Assembly (NCBI RefSeq): GCF_046105845.1
Contig: NZ_CP151004.1
Origin: Escherichia coli
GTDB taxonomy: Bacteria > Pseudomonadota > Gammaproteobacteria > Enterobacterales > Enterobacteriaceae
DNA: 64,000 nt
Reading direction: 5' to 3' (one strand)
Below the pieces are notes generated by a model, which had not been told where the DNA came from, searched no databases, and saw only the letters and a program-made list of their open reading frames with translations. This document shows, one piece after another, positions 1 to 25,116 of this stretch. Every line of letters starts with the position of its first letter. Within the stretch, counting starts at the first letter, position 1. Both the position numbers and the translations under genes were made by a program.

Positions 1-1085
<1,085 letters not shown>

Positions 1086-16311: not shown

Positions 16312-18294
16312 TTAACGGCTCTGCTTTCTCAACAAATAGATAAAATATGGCGCGCCGATAAAGGTCGACAGCAGCCCCGCTGGGATCTGGAATGGAAACA
16401 GCACCATCCGCCCACACCAGTCAGCGAACACCAGCAGTAAACCACCCACCAGCGCCGAAATTACGATGTGTGGCATCGTCCGTCGAAAGCCCATCATCCG
16501 CGCAATATGCGGTGCCATTAAACCAACAAAACTCAACGGTCCAATAGTCATCGTCGCGGTCGCCGTCAGGCAAGCCGCTAATAGCAGCAGCGCAATTCGC
16601 GTCGGCGTCAGCGCCATTCCTACGGCTCGTGCGGTATCACCGCCCAGCGGTAAAATGGTCAGCCAGCGGCGGCACAGCGGGGTAATCGCCAGCAAAATTA
16701 CCATCGCAATTCCCGTGCGCCAGACCTGCGCATCGGTCGCGTTGTAGGTCGAACCGGAAATCCAAGTCAGAACTTGCGCCATTCGCGGGTCACCACTTGC
16801 CTGCAACATCATCAAAAGCATGGTGAACGCGGTACTTAACGCCATCCCCGCCAGTAGCATGCGGTGTGGGGAAAATCCACCGCGGCCGGCGGCGATCATA
16901 ATGATCAACAGCGTCACCGCCGCCCCGAGACTACCCGCAGGTAACAGCCAGCCAAAGGCATTACCCGGCACCAGAAACAGCATCAACACCACGCCAAACG
17001 CCGCGCCGGAGCTAATCCCCAGCACTTCCGGGCTTGCCATCGGGTTGCCGGTCAGCCGCTGAATAATACAGCCCGCCACCGCCAGCATGACTCCCGCAAA
17101 CAGCGCCGCCATAATTCGCGGCCAGCGCCAGGGCATTAAATCCTCGAGCAACGCCCCGCTCGCCCACGTCCAGCCGTGCGCATCACGGCCAAACGACAGC
17201 GCCACCACCACTGCCATCAACAGCAGCACGCCGCCCGCGAGGGCAAACGCCAGCACATGTTGGCGTTCAGCAGCGACACGATCGTTCACCTTCATATCCG
17301 GCGCGCTAATGCTGCGTAAACGCGGCAGCAGCCAAAGTAGCAGCGGCGCACCTATCAACGCAGTGACCGAACCGGTAGAAACTTCCATCCACACGCGAGT
17401 CAGCCAGAGGATGATTTGATCAGAAAGCCACAGAATTAACGCCCCAATCAGCGACGCCAGCATCAATCGTGGCAACAAACGCCGCGCCCCCAGCATTTTT
17501 GCCAGCAGTGGCGCGAACAACCCGATAAAGCCGATAATCCCCACCGCATTCACCAGCAGCGCACTGATGACTATCGCCAGCGTCAGCGCCGCCAGACGCG
17601 CGAGCGACAAGGCCAGCCCGAGATTGCGCGCCACGCCATCATCAAGCCCCATCAGGGTTAACGGGCGAAGTAGCAATAACGTCAGCATCACGCCGCCCAG
17701 CAGCTGCGGCCATAAACGCTCAACGCCGCCCCAGTCGGTTTGCGTCAGCGTTCCGGTGCTCCACAGAAACATGCTTTGCAGTTGGTCATGATGGAAGATA
17801 ACCAGTAACTGATTGATTGCACCGCAATAAAGGCTCACTACCAGCCCCGCGAGAATCAGCGTTACCGGCGACAGCCGTTTCCCCCACGCGACGCCAAAGA
17901 CAATTAAGCCAACCACACAAGCCCCTGCCAGTGCAGCAAACTGGCTCGCCATAGCACCTGGGATCGCCCAGAGCGTGGTGACGGTAATCCCCAGTTGCGC
18001 GCCTGTAGCAACGCCCAGCGTCGTCGGTTCCGCCAGCGGGTTACGCAGCACTTGCTGAAACAGCACGCCCACCAGCCCCAGGCCCGCGCCCACCAGCAGC
18101 GAAATCGCCAGACGCGGCAGCAAGCTGTAGTGAAAAATCATCTGCTCGATGACATCGATATCCGGCGACCAGGCAGCCTGCGCCCACTGGCTACGCGGCA
18201 GCGCTTGCGAAAAGTTCATCCAGGTGAGCGCCGCTGCGACAATCACCAGCAGCGCCAGCAATAACGCCGGGAAAAGCGCAATTCGTTTACTCAC
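16312..18294 (-). CDS. fhuB: Ferric hydroxamate ABC transporter permease
   Basis: 660-aa ORF MSKRIALFPALLLALLVIVAAALTWMNFSQALPRSQWAQAAWSPDIDVIEQ...; duplicated FecCD-type permease halves. Confidence 0.96.
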   Translation of the reverse strand: MSKRIALFPALLLALLVIVAAALTWMNFSQALPRSQWAQAAWSPDIDVIEQMIFHYSLLPRLAISLLVGAGLGLVGVLFQQVLRNPLAEPTTLGVATGAQLGITVTTLWAIPGAMASQFAALAGACVVGLIVFGVAWGKRLSPVTLILAGLVVSLYCGAINQLLVIFHHDQLQSMFLWSTGTLTQTDWGGVERLWPQLLGGVMLTLLLLRPLTLMGLDDGVARNLGLALSLARLAALTLAIVISALLVNAVGIIGFIGLFAPLLAKMLGARRLLPRLMLASLIGALILWLSDQIILWLTRVWMEVSTGSVTALIGAPLLLWLLPRLRSISAPDMKVNDRVAAERQHVLAFALAGGVLLLMAVVVALSFGRDAHGWTWASGALLEDLMPWRWPRIMAALFAGVMLAVAGCIIQRLTGNPMASPEVLGISSGAAFGVVLMLFLVPGNAFGWLLPAGSLGAAVTLLIIMIAAGRGGFSPHRMLLAGMALSTAFTMLLMMLQASGDPRMAQVLTWISGSTYNATDAQVWRTGIAMVILLAITPLCRRWLTILPLGGDTARAVGMALTPTRIALLLLAACLTATATMTIGPLSFVGLMAPHIARMMGFRRTMPHIVISALVGGLLLVFADWCGRMVLFPFQIPAGLLSTFIGAPYFIYLLRKQSR

Positions 18295-19181
18295 GCTTTA
18301 CCTCCGATGGCGTTATCCAGAATACGCACAAAGTGCATTGCCGAAAGCGTCGCGCCATAGAACCAGACCGCCGGAACGCGCTGAAAGCGTCCGGCGCGGA
18401 CAAACGGCATGGCCTGCCACAGCGGCGTCGCCATTAGGGCGTCCATGTCTTTGCTGTTGTCGTGATCAAAACAGAGCACATCAACGTCTTTATACGCCGC
18501 CAGACGATCGATACTGACGGCGGTACTGCCCCAGAAGTTGGTTTCCCCTTGCCAGGCATTTGGGATGCCGTACTCATCAAGAATTTCCTGGAACAAGCTG
18601 TTTGGACCGAAGACCAGCATATGGCGCGGATCGATAAGTGTCGTCAGTAATAACGGACGCGCACCACGCTTCACAAAGCGGGGTTTCATGCTGCGGATAA
18701 AGTCTTCATAGTGCGCTAAATGCGTTTCTGCTGCGCTTTGCAGGTTAAGTAAATCTGCCATTTCCGTCAGTGATTTACGCGCCATCGCCAGCGGCTGTTT
18801 GCCGTCGCTGAAGTTAAATCCGCGCCCCGGCGCAATACGTGCCAGCATTTCTGGTGAAGGGCCATATCCTGCCGACCAGACCATAAACGACGGTTTCATT
18901 TCGGTCAGCAGTTCAAGGTTAGGTTCTGTACGCAAACCAACGTCAATCACTGAGTCCGGCAATGGTGGTTCGCTGACCCACAGGCGATAGTTGATGGTGT
19001 CCGCCACGCCGTAAGGCACGATGCCGAGCGCCAGCAGTAATTCCACCGGCAACCACTCCAGCGCCACAATACGATTGGGATCAATAGCCGCCGCGTGGGC
19101 GGTATTCATCTGCCATAACAACGGAGAAAGCGCCATCGCCGTTAACAGTCGGCGGCGCGAAATAAGAGGTAAGCCGCTCAT
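18291..19181 (-). CDS. fhuD: Ferric hydroxamate periplasmic binding protein
   Basis: ORF 18291-19184 (-); start taken at MSGLPLISRRRLLTAMALSPLLWQMNTAHA (296 aa); 4-bp overlap with fhuB start. Confidence 0.93.
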   Translation of the reverse strand: MSGLPLISRRRLLTAMALSPLLWQMNTAHAAAIDPNRIVALEWLPVELLLALGIVPYGVADTINYRLWVSEPPLPDSVIDVGLRTEPNLELLTEMKPSFMVWSAGYGPSPEMLARIAPGRGFNFSDGKQPLAMARKSLTEMADLLNLQSAAETHLAHYEDFIRSMKPRFVKRGARPLLLTTLIDPRHMLVFGPNSLFQEILDEYGIPNAWQGETNFWGSTAVSIDRLAAYKDVDVLCFDHDNSKDMDALMATPLWQAMPFVRAGRFQRVPAVWFYGATLSAMHFVRILDNAIGGKA

Positions 19182-19978
19182 CAATAAACAAAACTCACAG
19201 GTGCAGCACCCGCCGGATGCGGCAGAATACCCATCGGGATGCCATAAATCATTTCGAGGGTTTCGCCGCGCATAATTTCCGCAGGCGTTCCCTGAGCAAT
19301 CATTTCACCGCCGCGCAGGGCGACCAGATAATCACAGTAGCGCGCCGCCATATTAATATCGTGCAGCACGGCAATGACCGTCAGACCACGTTCCTGACTT
19401 AAACGATGCACCAGCGCCAGCACGTCAACCTGGTGGGCGATATCCAGCGCCGAGGTCGGTTCGTCGAGCAACAGACAACGGCTATCCTGCGCCACCAGCA
19501 TAGCGATCCACGCCCGCTGACGTTCGCCGCCAGAGAGACTATCGACCAGCCGATGCGCCAGCGGTTTTAAGCCAACCAGCGAAATCGCCTCTTCGACCTT
19601 TTCGCGATCTGCCGCACCAAAGCGCCCCAGTGCGCCATGCCACGGGTAACGACCAATCGCCACCAGTTCACGCACGGTCATCCCTTCTGCCGGAGGAAGC
19701 TGCTGCGGCAAATAAGCCACTTTGCGGGCGAACGCTTTGCTGCTCCAGCTTTCCAGCGGCTGGGCATCAAGAAGAATTTCGCCTTCCGACGGTGGCTGAT
19801 GACGGCCAAGCATTTTGAGCAGAGTGGATTTACCAGAACCGTTGTGACCAATCAGACCAGTCACTTTCCCGGCAGGAAAGGTTAACGACAGCGGATGCAA
19901 AAGCGTGCGCCCTGGCACACGAAAGGAGATATTACGCAGTGCAAAAGTGGTATCGGAATGATTCGTGTATTCCTGCAT
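19181..19978 (-). CDS. fhuC: Ferric hydroxamate ABC transporter ATP-binding protein
   Basis: ORF 19181-20020 (-); start taken at MQEYTNHSDTTFALRNISFRVPGRTLL (265 aa); Walker A GHNGSGKST; 1-bp overlap with fhuD. Confidence 0.93.
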   Translation of the reverse strand: MQEYTNHSDTTFALRNISFRVPGRTLLHPLSLTFPAGKVTGLIGHNGSGKSTLLKMLGRHQPPSEGEILLDAQPLESWSSKAFARKVAYLPQQLPPAEGMTVRELVAIGRYPWHGALGRFGAADREKVEEAISLVGLKPLAHRLVDSLSGGERQRAWIAMLVAQDSRCLLLDEPTSALDIAHQVDVLALVHRLSQERGLTVIAVLHDINMAARYCDYLVALRGGEMIAQGTPAEIMRGETLEMIYGIPMGILPHPAGAAPVSFVY

Positions 19979-20028
19979 AACAGCCAACTTGTGAAACGGG
20001 CACGGAAATCCGTGCCCCAAAAGAGAAA

Positions 20029-22272
20029 TTAGAAGCGGAAGGTTGCGGTTGCAACGACCTGACGTTCTGCGCCCCAGAAGCAGCCATAGGTGTTAAAGCA
20101 GCTGGCGACGTATTCACGATCGAACAGGTTGTTGACATGCAGCGCCACGTTGGAGCCAGCCATGCCGACTCGCGCCAGATCATAACGCACTAACGCATCC
20201 ACGACCGTATAACTTCCCACTTTAAAGGAGTTAGCCGGATCACCATAGCTGGAGCCAGTATAACGACCACCGGTGCCCAGCGTCAGACCTGAAAGCGGAC
20301 CGTCAAAGAAGGTATAGTCAGCCCACAGCGAAGCCATGTGTTTTGGCACCTGTGCAGGCGTATTGCCTTTATAGGTAGTGTCGGTGGTGTATTCCGCATC
20401 GGTGTAAGTATAAGAACCGACTACGTTAACACTCGCCGACAGCGCCGCTTTCGCTTCGATTTCTACGCCACGAGCGCGGATCTCGCCACCTTCAACCGAG
20501 AAGAAGGAACCCTCAGGGTCCGCCATCAGGTTGTTGGTTTTAGTGAGATTATACACGGCACCAGTAACCACAATTGGACGATCTTCCGGTACATATTTCA
20601 CGCCGACTTCATACTGCTTACCTTTAGACGGTGCGAAAATATTACCATCCTTCCCAACTTGCGAAGAAGGTTCAAACGATTCGCTATAGCTGAAGTAAGG
20701 TGTTACACCATTATCAAACAGGTAGTTAACACCACCACGCCAGGTAAACTGTTTGTCATCACGTTTATCGGTCGTTCCCGCTACGCGGTTAAGAGATTCT
20801 TGATCTGCCCAGTCGTAACGACCGCCCAGGGTGACCAGCACTTTATCCCACTGCGCCTGATCCTGAACATAAACGCCCGTTTGCTTCTGCTTATTCAGAA
20901 TGCGGTACGGACCGGAGTTATCCGGGTCTTTCGCATTGAAGTCGAAATCGGTATTCACCGGATTGTACAGATCGAGCAGCGGTACGGAGTCGTCGTAACC
21001 AAACCAGGCGTTGATGTCATTACGCATACGCATAAAGTCGACACCGGTCAGCAGGGTGTGGTCGATATCGCCAGTGGCAAACTTGCTCTGCAACTGGGTA
21101 TCAACGGAGAAGTTTTGCAGCTTCTCATCATCAACGACGTATTTACGTGCCAGGTAGTGACCTTTATCGGCTGGCGCTAAAGCGGCACACTGTTTGCTGT
21201 AAGCATTCGCCGGATCGGAGCAGACGCCGTAACCATAAACGCTGTTTTGCGAGGTTTTGTTTTCAGCAAAGCGCAGGTTCTGACGCACAGTAAAGGTGTC
21301 GTTAAATTCGTGATCGAAGCTATAGCCCACCATCTTCTCATTACGAGAATAGGTGTTGTTCTTCGCCCCTTCGTTAAAATCTGTCGGCAGACGCTTACCG
21401 TTCGGCAGCGGCTCAACGGTACCCTCTTTCGGCAACCAGCCGTAATAACCGGTTTCCGGCTCGTTCTGGAAGTAAGAAAGGAAGGTGAAATTGGTTTTAT
21501 CATCCGGACGCCAGGTGAACGCCGGTGCAATAGCATAACGCTGCTCTTCTGAGCCTTTCTGCTGGGCATTGGCAGAACGCGCAAGACCGGTCAGGCGATA
21601 AGAGTAAACACCGTCATCATCCAACGCATCGCTAAAGTCAAAACCAGTCTGGAACAGGCTGTCAGTACCGGCTTTAAACTGAACTTCTTTCAGCGGTTCA
21701 GTAGTCGGACGCTTGCTGACCATATTCAACAGACCGCCAGGACTGCTTTTACCGTAAAGCACGGAAACCGGGCCACGCATAATTTCAGCGCGTTCCAGCA
21801 TATACGGGTCAATGACCGCATCGTTATAGAAGTTGCCCTGCAACTTCAGGCCATTCAGATAGTTATTCTGGCTTTGGCCTTCTGCCGCAAAGCCGCGAAT
21901 GATCAGGTGGTCATAGGTGTTGGATGCGCCACGCGTACCAACAGAGACACCCGGCGTGTAGCTAAGCGCTTCTTTTACCGACTTCGGCTGATGCAGCGCC
22001 ATCTCTTCGGCGGTCACAACAGAAATAGACTGTGGCACTTTTTGAATCGGCGTATCGGTTTTAGTGCCGGTAGCTGACTGTCGCGCCGCAATAGTTGCAG
22101 CCGGCCCCCATGCGCTTTCTTGCGGCGCAGGTGCAGCGGTAACGGTGATAGTGTCTTCTTTCGGTTCAACCGCTGCCTGTGCATAAACAGACATGCCGCT
22201 AACCGCTGTGGCTACTACAACTGCGATTTTACGCAGTGAATGTTTTGGCTGAGCAGTTTTGGAACGCGCCAT
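20029..22272 (-). CDS. fhuA: Ferrichrome outer membrane transporter (TonB-dependent receptor)
   Basis: 747-aa ORF MARSKTAQPKHSLRKIAVVVATAVSGMSVYAQAAVEPKEDTITV...; terminal ...ATATFRF. Confidence 0.97.
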   Translation of the reverse strand: MARSKTAQPKHSLRKIAVVVATAVSGMSVYAQAAVEPKEDTITVTAAPAPQESAWGPAATIAARQSATGTKTDTPIQKVPQSISVVTAEEMALHQPKSVKEALSYTPGVSVGTRGASNTYDHLIIRGFAAEGQSQNNYLNGLKLQGNFYNDAVIDPYMLERAEIMRGPVSVLYGKSSPGGLLNMVSKRPTTEPLKEVQFKAGTDSLFQTGFDFSDALDDDGVYSYRLTGLARSANAQQKGSEEQRYAIAPAFTWRPDDKTNFTFLSYFQNEPETGYYGWLPKEGTVEPLPNGKRLPTDFNEGAKNNTYSRNEKMVGYSFDHEFNDTFTVRQNLRFAENKTSQNSVYGYGVCSDPANAYSKQCAALAPADKGHYLARKYVVDDEKLQNFSVDTQLQSKFATGDIDHTLLTGVDFMRMRNDINAWFGYDDSVPLLDLYNPVNTDFDFNAKDPDNSGPYRILNKQKQTGVYVQDQAQWDKVLVTLGGRYDWADQESLNRVAGTTDKRDDKQFTWRGGVNYLFDNGVTPYFSYSESFEPSSQVGKDGNIFAPSKGKQYEVGVKYVPEDRPIVVTGAVYNLTKTNNLMADPEGSFFSVEGGEIRARGVEIEAKAALSASVNVVGSYTYTDAEYTTDTTYKGNTPAQVPKHMASLWADYTFFDGPLSGLTLGTGGRYTGSSYGDPANSFKVGSYTVVDALVRYDLARVGMAGSNVALHVNNLFDREYVASCFNTYGCFWGAERQVVATATFRF

Positions 22273-22294
22273 TGGTATATCTCTGATGTAAAGT

Positions 22295-22345
22295 GAATGA
22301 TAACGTAAACGAGAATGATTATTATAAAGATAAGATAATATTCGA
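22295..22345 (-). promoter_or_regulatory. fhuA promoter with Fur box
   Basis: AT-rich segment just upstream of fhuA; - strand reads ...CTTATCTTTATAATAATCATTCTCGTTTACGTTATCATTC..., containing GATAAT/ATCATT hexamer repeats typical of Fur sites. Confidence 0.65.
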
Positions 22346-22491
22346 AACGCTGGCGGGTTCGCAAGCGGTACGCAATCTGAGCGTTCCTGAAGGGTTAATA
22401 AACAACCAGATGAAAAGAAAGGGTTAATACTTTAGGTGGGATGTTATTTTACCGGATGGCAACTCGCCATCCGGTATGTCACGCTTAGACG

Positions 22492-25023
22492 TTAATTACT
22501 ACCAAACATATCCTTGATCCAACCGGCTACACCGTCGCTGTCTTTCTGCTCTTGCTGAGCAGGTTGCTGTTGCGGCTGTTGCTGCGGCTGAGAAGACTGA
22601 TCAAACGGATTGCCTGACGGTTGCTGCTGCATCTCACTCTGCTGGCACAGCGATTGCGGATCGCTGGTCCAGACCGGCAAGACACGCATGCCACCGCTGC
22701 AAACAAAGTTGCCGTCGTAGTCCACGCCCATATCTGCAATATCTTCTGGCGGAACAAGATTCAGCGGTGTTGGCGTCTGGTTAGCCAGATAACGCTGATA
22801 AATCGACATTGCCCCGCTGGCTCCATACAGTTTGGTCGGTTGGTTGTTATCACGGCCTACCCAGGTGATGGTCACCGTGCTGCCGTCAATGCCCGCAAAC
22901 CAGGTATCTACGTTATTGTTGGTAGTCCCTGTTTTCCCTGCCAGATGCAGGTTCGGGTATTTCGCCCCAAGCTGACGACCCGTACCGCGTTGTACAACCT
23001 GCTGCATGGTCCATAGTGTCAGATACGCCGCCTGCGCCGGAACAGCGCGTTCCGCCTGCGGGAAGCTCTGATACAGCACTTTGCCATCTTCCGCGATTAC
23101 CGAACGCAGCGCAGAAAGCGGTGCACGGTTACCACCGCTGGCGATGGTCTGGAATGCCTGCGCCACTTCGATTGGCGTTAAGTTCAACGCCCCCAGCAGC
23201 ATTGCCGGAACCGGATGCAGCTGATCTTTCGGTACGCCCAGTTTGATCCAGGTCTCCGTAACCGCAGGCAGCCCCAGCGCCATCCCCAGATTTACCGTCG
23301 GCACGTTCATCGAACGGGTCAACGCATCCACCAGCATCACTCTGCCGCTTTCGCTATAACGACGGTCATCGTTCTGCGGTGACCAGACCTGGCCATTCGG
23401 CTGACGTAGCGCGATTGGCGCATCCGCAATCCACGTGTTCAGGCGATAGATTTTCGGCTGGCTTAAGGCCGTCAGATAAGTCGCTGGTTTTGCAAGAGAA
23501 CCAATCGAACGACGCGCCTGCATCGCACGGTTGTAGCCCGCAAACTGCGGCTCAGAACCACCGACCATCGCACGAACTTCACCACTAAAGCGGTCGACGA
23601 CCACAATCGCAGTTTCAAGATCGCTCAGCTTACGCTGTTTCTTCAGTGCCGGAATGCCTTCCACGGCGGCTTTTTCTGCCGCGTCCTGTGCCACCGAGTC
23701 AAATGTAGTGAAGATCTTCACGCCGGAGAGATCTTTTACCTTATCGCCCAGTTTTGCCTGCAGCTCCTGACGCACCAGTTGCATAAAGGCTGGCTGAGGA
23801 GAGATCACCCCACCGCGCGGCTGAACACCCAGCGGACGTGCACTCAACATGTCATAGAGTTCTTGATCAATAATCTGTTGCTGTTGCAGCAAACGTAGCA
23901 CCAGGTTACGTCGCTCCAGCGCCAGTTTCGGGTTACGCCACGGGTTGTAGATGGACGCCCCTTTCACCATACCCACCAACAGCGCCTGCTGATCGAGGCT
24001 CAATTCTTCTACCGGACGACCAAAGTAATACAAGCTCGCCAGCGGGAAGCCGCGGATTTCGTTGTCGCCGCTCTGACCGAGATACACCTCGTTCATATAC
24101 AGCTCAAGAATACGGTCTTTGCTGTAACGCGCGTCCATGATCAGCGCCATGTAAGCTTCGTTCGCTTTACGCCAGTAAGAGCGCTCGCTGGAGAGGAACA
24201 GGTTTTTCACCAGCTGTTGCGTCAGCGTACTCGCACCCTGCACCGTGCGTCCGGCGGTCAGGTTTGCCAGCACCGCACGTCCGATGGAGTAGAGACTGAT
24301 CCCATCATGCTCGTAGAAATGGCGGTCTTCTGTCGCCAGCAAAGTATCCACCAGCAAATCAGGGAAACCACTGCGCGGCACAAACAGACGTTGCTCACCG
24401 TTTGGCGAGGAGATCATGGTGATCAGGCGCGGATCAAGACGGAAGAAACCAAACTGACGGTTGTTCTCCATATTGACGATGGTCGCCAGATGATCGCCAT
24501 CAAAGGTCAGACGCGCACGCACCTGCCCTTCTTTACTGTCCGGGAAATCAAACGGACGGCGGATCATCTCAATGCTGTTGGCCTGCACGGTAAATTCGCC
24601 AGGACGGGTCATTTTCGACACCTGACGATACTGGGTCGCCTCCAGCAGCTTCACCATCTCGTTCTTGCTGATGGTCATGTCTGGCTCAAGGTTGACCATC
24701 CGGCCATAAACTGCCGCGGGCAGTTGCCAGACCTTACCATCAATACGGCTGCGAATTTTTTGATCGAGATAAACGCCGTAAATGGCGATCAGCACGGCAA
24801 AAACGATAGCCAGTTTTAGCAGCAGCCATAGCCAGCCGCGTTTGCCACGAGGCTTACGCCCTTTGCCTTTGCCCTTACCTTTGCGTGGCATCGGTTCTTC
24901 ATCCTCATAGTCATCATAATCGTCGTAATCGTCATCTTCGTAACGACGACGGCTTACCTTTTGTTTGACCGGACGCGTCGGTTTCCCTTTGCGTCCAATT
25001 GGCTCGCGGTCATTCCCGGCCAT
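22492..25023 (-). CDS. mrcB: Penicillin-binding protein 1B (bifunctional glycosyltransferase/transpeptidase)
   Basis: ORF 22492-25038 (-); start taken at [23 protein letters not shown] (843 aa); acidic [14 protein letters not shown] and KGKGKGKG tracts then transmembrane helix. Confidence 0.95.
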
Positions 25024-25116
25024 GCTTTTTCTCCGCAATATTCAGGCGCAAAAGCCCGATTTTCTGTTCTTCTGTTGCAAGACAGAAGAAGATATCTCTC
25101 AAATTTGCTTTGGTCT

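Follow-up and report, generated by a model that had tools for sequence, protein, structure and literature searches.

Evidence for a Fur operator at the fhuACDB promoter of Escherichia coli and a conserved block adjoining it

The fhuACDB locus and its upstream region

The element considered here lies upstream of fhuA in a 64-kb window of E. coli DNA (the window being the whole stretch that was analyzed, 64,000 nucleotides). The first gene of the operon, fhuA (20029..22272, minus strand), encodes the ferrichrome outer-membrane transporter (NCBIfam equivalog NF007465, 1473 bits) and is followed on the same strand by fhuC (19181..20020), fhuD (18291..19184), and fhuB (16312..18294). These three genes together span 16312..20020 and were assigned from the open reading frame list and NCBIfam equivalogs (NF007863, NF007864, and NF007865 for the fhuC/fhuD/fhuB set). 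The arrangement is that of the fhuACDB operon, as named in a first-pass annotation made from the sequence alone. The longest fhuC reading frame starts with a TTG at 20020, 8 bp past the fhuA stop codon; because the FhuC profile aligns only from residue 15 of this frame, the true fhuC start is probably at 19978. The open reading frame upstream of fhuA is mrcB (22492..25038), which encodes MrcB. Directly past the mrcB stop codon, at 22447..22475 (minus strand), a GC-rich hairpin, CCGGATGGCGAGTTGCCATCCGG, is followed by an A/T-rich (mostly A) run, TAAAATAA. This is probably the mrcB terminator; a simple terminator scan did not report the hairpin.

The 40-nt string that had drawn attention to this region, CTTATCTTTATAATAATCATTCTCGTTTACGTTATCATTC, has a single occurrence, on the minus strand at 22295..22334, inside the 22295-22345 interval given for it. 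Its 3' end is 22 bp upstream of the fhuA ATG (22272), within the 219-bp mrcB-fhuA intergenic region. The description of the interval as AT-rich was borne out: 22295-22345 is 76.5% A+T, whereas the intergenic region has 59.4% and the window 48.5%. On the minus strand, exact NATWAT hexamers are limited to 22340-35, 22326-21, and 22323-18; on the plus strand, they are limited to 22317-22, 22320-25, and 22334-39.

Over the roughly 200 bp that precede the fhuA ATG, the window is identical to K-12 MG1655; it departs from K-12 only beyond this stretch, close to the mrcB terminator. A window position x converts to MG1655 position 167484 + (22272 - x). The window is a 100% match to E. coli strains such as ST2747 and PCN033, and the 291 bp around the element match 5421 of 5426 complete E. 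coli genomes.

Promoter and transcription start

A promoter scan found a sigma-70 promoter on the minus strand, TTGCGA-N18-TATTAT (9/12 consensus matches), with its -35 hexamer at 22359..22364 and its -10 hexamer at 22335..22340. Both elements fit the transcription start site (TSS) mapped by Cappable-seq in MG1655 grown in M9 glucose (Ettwiller et al., 2016; PMC4782308, supplementary file 1), which lies at MG1655 167428 (window 22328, minus strand; relative read score 31.4), 7 nt past the end of the -10 hexamer. The same data also contain a minor TSS at 167477. A different start, at window 22314, is implied by the positions in Jo et al. (2019; PMC6397515), whose TSS was taken from Huerta and Collado-Vides (2003); we derived it from their statement "TTACGTTATCATTCA, +7 to +21 from the TSS." The start at 22314 would use a perfect TATAAT inside the Fur box (22321..22326, minus strand) as an alternative -10 hexamer. 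The two placements thus disagree, the Cappable-seq start at 22328 fitting the conserved TTGCGA-N18-TATTAT promoter and the start of Jo et al. (2019) fitting the TATAAT, and no Cappable-seq TSS was present at 167442 (window 22314) in MG1655 in M9 glucose.

We compared these elements across more than 20 genera by aligning 73 unique upstream sequences. The -35 hexamer is strongly conserved (TTGC 99-100%, final A 93%), as is the -10 hexamer TATTAT (88-100%), and the TATAAT at 22321..22326 reads CATAAT in 54 of the 73 other sequences. A point that may help annotators is that the Fur box, judged from the mapped TSS, falls within the initial transcribed region.

Upstream of the promoter, an 11-bp direct repeat, TATTAACCCTT, occurs on the minus strand at 22419..22429 and 22391..22401, the copies lying 28 bp apart. 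The first copy overlaps the counterpart of a distal HypT footprint that is discussed below. Several positions within 22410-22393 are 95-99% conserved across genera.

A Fur matrix places the core site over the start region

We scored the window with a strand-symmetric log-odds position weight matrix (PWM) built from 18 K-12 Fur sites (NC_000913.3), with fhuA excluded. The training sites were footprinted or gel-shifted K-12 Fur sites with coordinates from Chen et al. (2007; PMC2189734), converted from U00096.2 to NC_000913.3, with the cir site shifted by a 2-bp correction. Their 19-mers align as AATGATAATnATTATCATT. The fur, tonB, and fepB sites were chosen within published footprints by the matrix itself, so that the procedure is mildly circular where they are concerned. 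Scored leave-one-out, the training sites ranged from 7.7 to 27.7 bits, with a median of 20.8.

Matrix scoring, the check that the first-pass annotation had proposed for its Fur-box-like operator, gave 20.0 bits for the 9-1-9 19-mer TATAATAATCATTCTCGTT (22308..22326, minus strand). This is the best of the 63,982 positions in the 64-kb window and falls within the range of footprinted Fur sites. The center of the 19-mer, 22317, corresponds to MG1655 167439, 45 bp upstream of the fhuA ATG, and is the same coordinate as a site gel-shifted by Chen et al. (2007). From the exact score distribution, such a match has a probability of 7.4e-8 per position, or 0.005 expected per 64-kb window, and a 20-bit match is expected 1.2e-4 times in the mrcB-fhuA spacer at the spacer's own base composition. 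When the window was resampled 200 times with a first-order Markov model, a score of 20 bits was reached once. The core occupies +3..+21 relative to the mapped TSS at 22328, or -12..+7 relative to the alternative TSS at 22314.

Near the core, PWM scores are positive only at centers 22323 (6.1 bits), 22317 (20.0 bits), and 22311 (1.8 bits), and off-register positions are strongly negative. The site is therefore a cluster of three in-phase walkers covering 31 bp (22302..22332, minus strand), in a 6-bp register of the kind expected for multi-dimer binding; the neighboring walkers are weak, and binding of a second dimer is no more than probable. The left half-site, TATAATAAT, is degenerate, with no G at -6, which makes the fhuA site one of middling strength. 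The imperfect dyad symmetry of the site counts against a Fur assignment. These scores also narrow the operator as it was first drawn. Only the central part of the quoted string, in which GATAAT/ATCATT-type hexamers had been noted, carries the Fur signal, and the operator extends over about 31 bp (core 22308..22326) rather than the whole 40-51 bp. The downstream ATCATT lies in a block with negative PWM scores that corresponds to a HypT footprint, and the upstream CTTATC of the quoted string is not conserved outside E. coli in the 73-sequence alignment.

The second-best PWM match in the window was ATTGAGAATCATTCTGAAT, at 993..1011 (17.1 bits; palindromic, so found on either strand), 84 bp upstream of the ATG at 1086 of map, which encodes methionine aminopeptidase. 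This match, which was absent from the first-pass annotation, coincides with a published Fur ChIP-exo peak at MG1655 189588-189600 (annotated "map," intergenic; PMC10164565) and thus provides an independent validation of the matrix.

Counting matches to the classical 19-bp consensus, GATAATGATAATCATTATC, performed far less well. The best fhuA match was 14/19, at 22329..22311, a score that about 15 further strand-positions in the window equal or exceed, so we rejected consensus counting as a test. The top consensus match in the window (16/19, at 59491..59509) falls in a DDDDHDHHHH codon repeat of a 649-aa open reading frame (58549..60498) with Gln/Arg-rich C-terminal repeats. The GAT/CAT codon run in which it lies, DDDDHDHHHHDDDDYHHH (59458..59509, plus strand), mimics the Fur consensus, reaches at most 11.7 bits by PWM, and is likely a false positive for consensus-based scans. 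The fhuA site thus exceeds chance only weakly by eye or by the classical consensus and clearly by PWM, and it is the matrix, not hexamer counting, that tells a true Fur site from look-alikes such as His/Asp codon repeats.

Conservation of the operator

Within the species, the 47-mer at 22294-22340 is present in 5409 of the 5426 complete E. coli genomes and exact in 4185. The other 1224 copies are 95-99% identical, with one or two mismatches among the matches listed; the variants that were aligned carry theirs at 22333/22332. The spacer surrounding the 47-mer falls to 88% identity within E. coli. In some lineages (E. coli 4/0 and 2017-02-2CC) a fimbrial-protein gene replaces mrcB directly upstream of fhuA; in these two strains the sequence becomes similar to the window again only from about 40-150 bp before the ATG onward, and the promoter/operator block is intact.

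A scan for FhuA among GTDB representative genomes recovered 78 loci in more than 20 genera, 77 of them with an intact 5' end. The genera include Escherichia, Salmonella, Citrobacter, Enterobacter, Leclercia, Lelliottia, Kosakonia, and Phytobacter, among others, with Buttiauxella, Atlantibacter, Klebsiella indica, Hafnia, and Ewingella as further taxa. For all 77 loci, the best PWM match in the 300 bp upstream scored 12.5-21.6 bits; it was located at -43..-49 in the 72 loci whose protein match starts from residue 1, and the five with an extrapolated start have it between -36 and -60. The sequence of this match in almost all 77 loci is [C/T]ATAATAAT[A/C]ATT[C/A]TCGTT.

In the alignment of 73 sequences, 16 of the 19 core positions are at least 95% conserved (Fur core mean 88.7%). 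Conservation is 96-100% throughout 22325..22294 with the exception of 22317, the zero-information center of the palindrome, and 22313, which is A or C, each of them frequent among Fur sites. The right half-site, ATTCTCGTT, is accordingly 97-100% conserved outside 22313 (C/A, 73%), and 22326 is mostly C. Positions 22332-22327 are poorly conserved and the upstream walker is lost in other genera, which makes this weak walker specific to E. coli; the downstream walker (-39) scores 5.3-11.4 bits in other genera. The correlation between PWM information and conservation across the 19-mer was positive and not significant (Spearman rho 0.38, p = 0.10), since hardly any position varies; it counts among the points against a Fur assignment. 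A conserved mismatch, G at 22310, hints at an additional constraint. The operator is among the most conserved non-coding blocks of the locus, and the evidence of our own for a Fur site consists of this conservation, the sequence match, its significance, and its position in the promoter.

Published binding and regulation by Fur

Binding of Fur in vitro, its occupancy in vivo, and derepression in fur deletion strains have been reported by others for K-12, whose sequence is identical here. Table 4 of Chen et al. (2007; NAR 35:6762) lists fhuA at 167439, -45 from the start codon, with a score of 19.5 bits, as a cluster of three walkers over 31 bp with experimental code G (gel-shift positive), and 150 nM Fur shifted the fhuA oligo in that study. 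A DNase I footprint of Fur on fhuA was not found in the literature surveyed.

Gao et al. (2023; PMC10164565) assigned three MG1655 Fur ChIP-exo peaks to fhuACDB (167218-254, 167456-466, and 167641-672; also in Seo et al.) and found a W3110 peak at 167456-468, with iron-replete conditions for both strains. The central interval, 167456-167466 (window 22300..22290), has its midpoint about 22 bp downstream of the PWM center, and this offset counts against the assignment. We considered the two side peaks (window ~22502-22538 and 22084-22115) as operators and rejected them, since their PWM scores are only 2.1 and -13.6 bits.

Deletion of fur raised fhuA expression in eight of nine strains, by a log2 of 1.09 to 5.0 (Gao et al., 2023). 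The derepression in MG1655 is at the modest end of this range (log2 1.09), a further point against. The same authors place fhuA in the "accessory" regulon, since expression did not change in one of the nine (log2 fold change 0, with no fhuA ortholog entry). Derepression of fhuA in a fur deletion was also observed by RT-qPCR and with a fhuA::lacZ fusion (Gerken et al., 2020; PMC7315122). Together with the ChIP-exo data, these results agree with the iron/Fur repression that had been proposed from the sequence. A paper on a "PfhuA" expression vector (PMC3621691) was set aside as evidence; its promoter comes from Vibrio cholerae and is uninformative for the E. coli sequence.

The block next to the Fur core and its match to a HypT footprint

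The 3' part of the quoted string can be read in a way that complements the Fur assignment and is compatible with it. Jo et al. (2019; PNAS 116:3740) reported two HypT DNase I footprints on Salmonella Typhimurium fhuA, TTACGTTATCATTCA and, at -111..-97, AACCCTTCCTTTTCA. The promoter-proximal footprint is found letter for letter at 22294..22308 (minus strand), and the distal one has a counterpart, AACCCTTTCTTTTCA, at 22411..22425 (minus strand), which is identical at 14 of 15 positions. Compared with the Salmonella HypT (YjiE) sites, then, the proximal 15-mer is identical, the distal site has one mismatch, and the spacing is the same; the TSS to which Jo et al. (2019) refer their positions (window 22314), in contrast, is without Cappable-seq support.

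The GTTATCATTC segment of this block (22304..22295) is PWM-negative in every register, and we therefore rejected a second Fur site at the 3' ATCATT repeat. Scores are negative from center 22310 downstream, and only the +1.8-bit walker at 22311 reaches into the block, to 22302. The block is nonetheless the most conserved part of the region, with a mean of 96.6% across the 73 sequences, above the 88.7% of the Fur core.

These features would fit a composite operator in which Fur occupies only the 5' two-thirds and 22308..22294 is a separate half-site for HypT, a LysR-type regulator that senses HOCl. Bound there and at the distal site (22425..22411), HypT would fold the promoter into a loop and repress fhuA during hypochlorite stress. 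We regard this arrangement as plausible, if somewhat short of probable. The binding evidence is for Salmonella HypT on Salmonella DNA, the effect of HypT on fhuA was only about twofold and seen only under HOCl (PMC6397515), and the distal counterpart is only moderately conserved across genera. An extended Fur array could instead protect the block: the PWM keeps its 6-bp phase through it (-4.2 bits at 22305 and -7.6 at 22299, with off-phase positions mostly at -12 or lower), and the reported Fur ChIP-exo interval maps to the area of this block, not to the PWM center. From these sequence comparisons, 22294..22308 may serve HypT in E. coli as well, may extend the Fur array, or may do both.

A stronger proposal, which we consider rather unlikely, is that 22308..22294 would serve in E. 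coli as a docking site that Fur and HypT share or compete for, so that iron and hypochlorite signals would be integrated on one composite operator. If this were true, the composite operator would be part of the transcribed leader, past the TSS at 22328, instead of covering the -10 hexamer as databases assume. For annotators, the invariant block beside the Fur core is a candidate HypT site.

The same block could in principle act at the RNA level, as part of a structured or sRNA-targeted 5' leader of the fhuA mRNA rather than as a protein operator. Transcription from 22328 would place the Fur box and the nearly invariant downstream block in a 56-nt leader. A 74-nt stretch comprising this leader and the first 18 coding nucleotides, however, has a minimum free energy of -2.8 kcal/mol, no better than shuffled sequences (z = +1.2), and it matches no Rfam family at E <= 1, which makes an RNA-level role very improbable. 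The near-invariance gives no covariation to test, and no sRNA acting on fhuA was found in the literature surveyed, in which OmrA/B are reported for fecA and fepA (PMC7315122). Least credible of all is a chance resemblance, in which the AT-rich stretch would be a promoter only, Fur boxes and -10 elements both being A/T-rich: the 76.5% A+T content, the perfect TATAAT, and a 14/19 consensus match that is equaled or beaten elsewhere in the window, coding sequence included, would all suit it, but it is at odds with the expectation of 1.2e-4 matches of 20 bits in the spacer, with the conservation of a right half-site that is no promoter element, and with a published gel shift (PMC2189734) and ChIP-exo peak (PMC10164565) on the exact sequence.

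Fur control of fhuACDB

The element is almost certainly the Fur operator of the fhuACDB promoter, and the first-pass annotation, working from sequence only, was right to call it so. This operator is already in the literature, and recognizing it here brings nothing new to the biology.

That Fur controls fhuACDB is textbook knowledge, and this control couples the level of the ferrichrome receptor to iron supply; the same receptor serves albomycin, phages T1, T5, and phi80, and colicin M. The working of the fhuA site can be sketched from established knowledge of Fur, which is the source of the occlusion mechanism; its steric nature and the number of dimers are what we infer. When iron is plentiful, Fe2+-loaded Fur dimers bind the 19-bp inverted repeat at 22308..22326, and a second, overlapping dimer probably binds 6 bp away on a different helix face. 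The site covers part of the start region, either +3..+21 of the mapped transcript or the -10 and +1 of the alternative start. Because of this overlap, bound Fur would be expected to keep RNA polymerase from forming a productive initiation complex, which would turn ferrichrome uptake off. With either TSS, the Fur core falls within the RNA polymerase footprint, in keeping with repression by occlusion. When iron is scarce, Fur gives up its metal and comes off the DNA, which allows the operon to be transcribed.

Comparison with known Fur sites

The closest known system is the K-12 fhuA cluster of Chen et al. (2007). It is the same locus at the same coordinate (window 22317), the promoter sequence is identical throughout, and our matrix gives 20.0 bits, three walkers, and 31 bp where 19.5 bits, three walkers, and 31 bp were published. 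Nothing of substance differs, the window being simply another E. coli strain.

The fhuA site also resembles canonical Fur boxes such as those of fepA-fes, entC, fecI, cir, fhuF, exbB, and tonB, which are described by the 9-1-9, 7-1-7, and GATAAT-hexamer models. Like them, it is a 19-bp imperfect inverted repeat of the AATGATAATnATTATCATT type, has overlapping sites 6 bp apart, and lies over the core promoter or start of a TonB-dependent uptake system. Whereas fecI, yoeA, and iucA carry long arrays of Fur sites (PMC2189734), fhuA has one strong site with weak neighbors.
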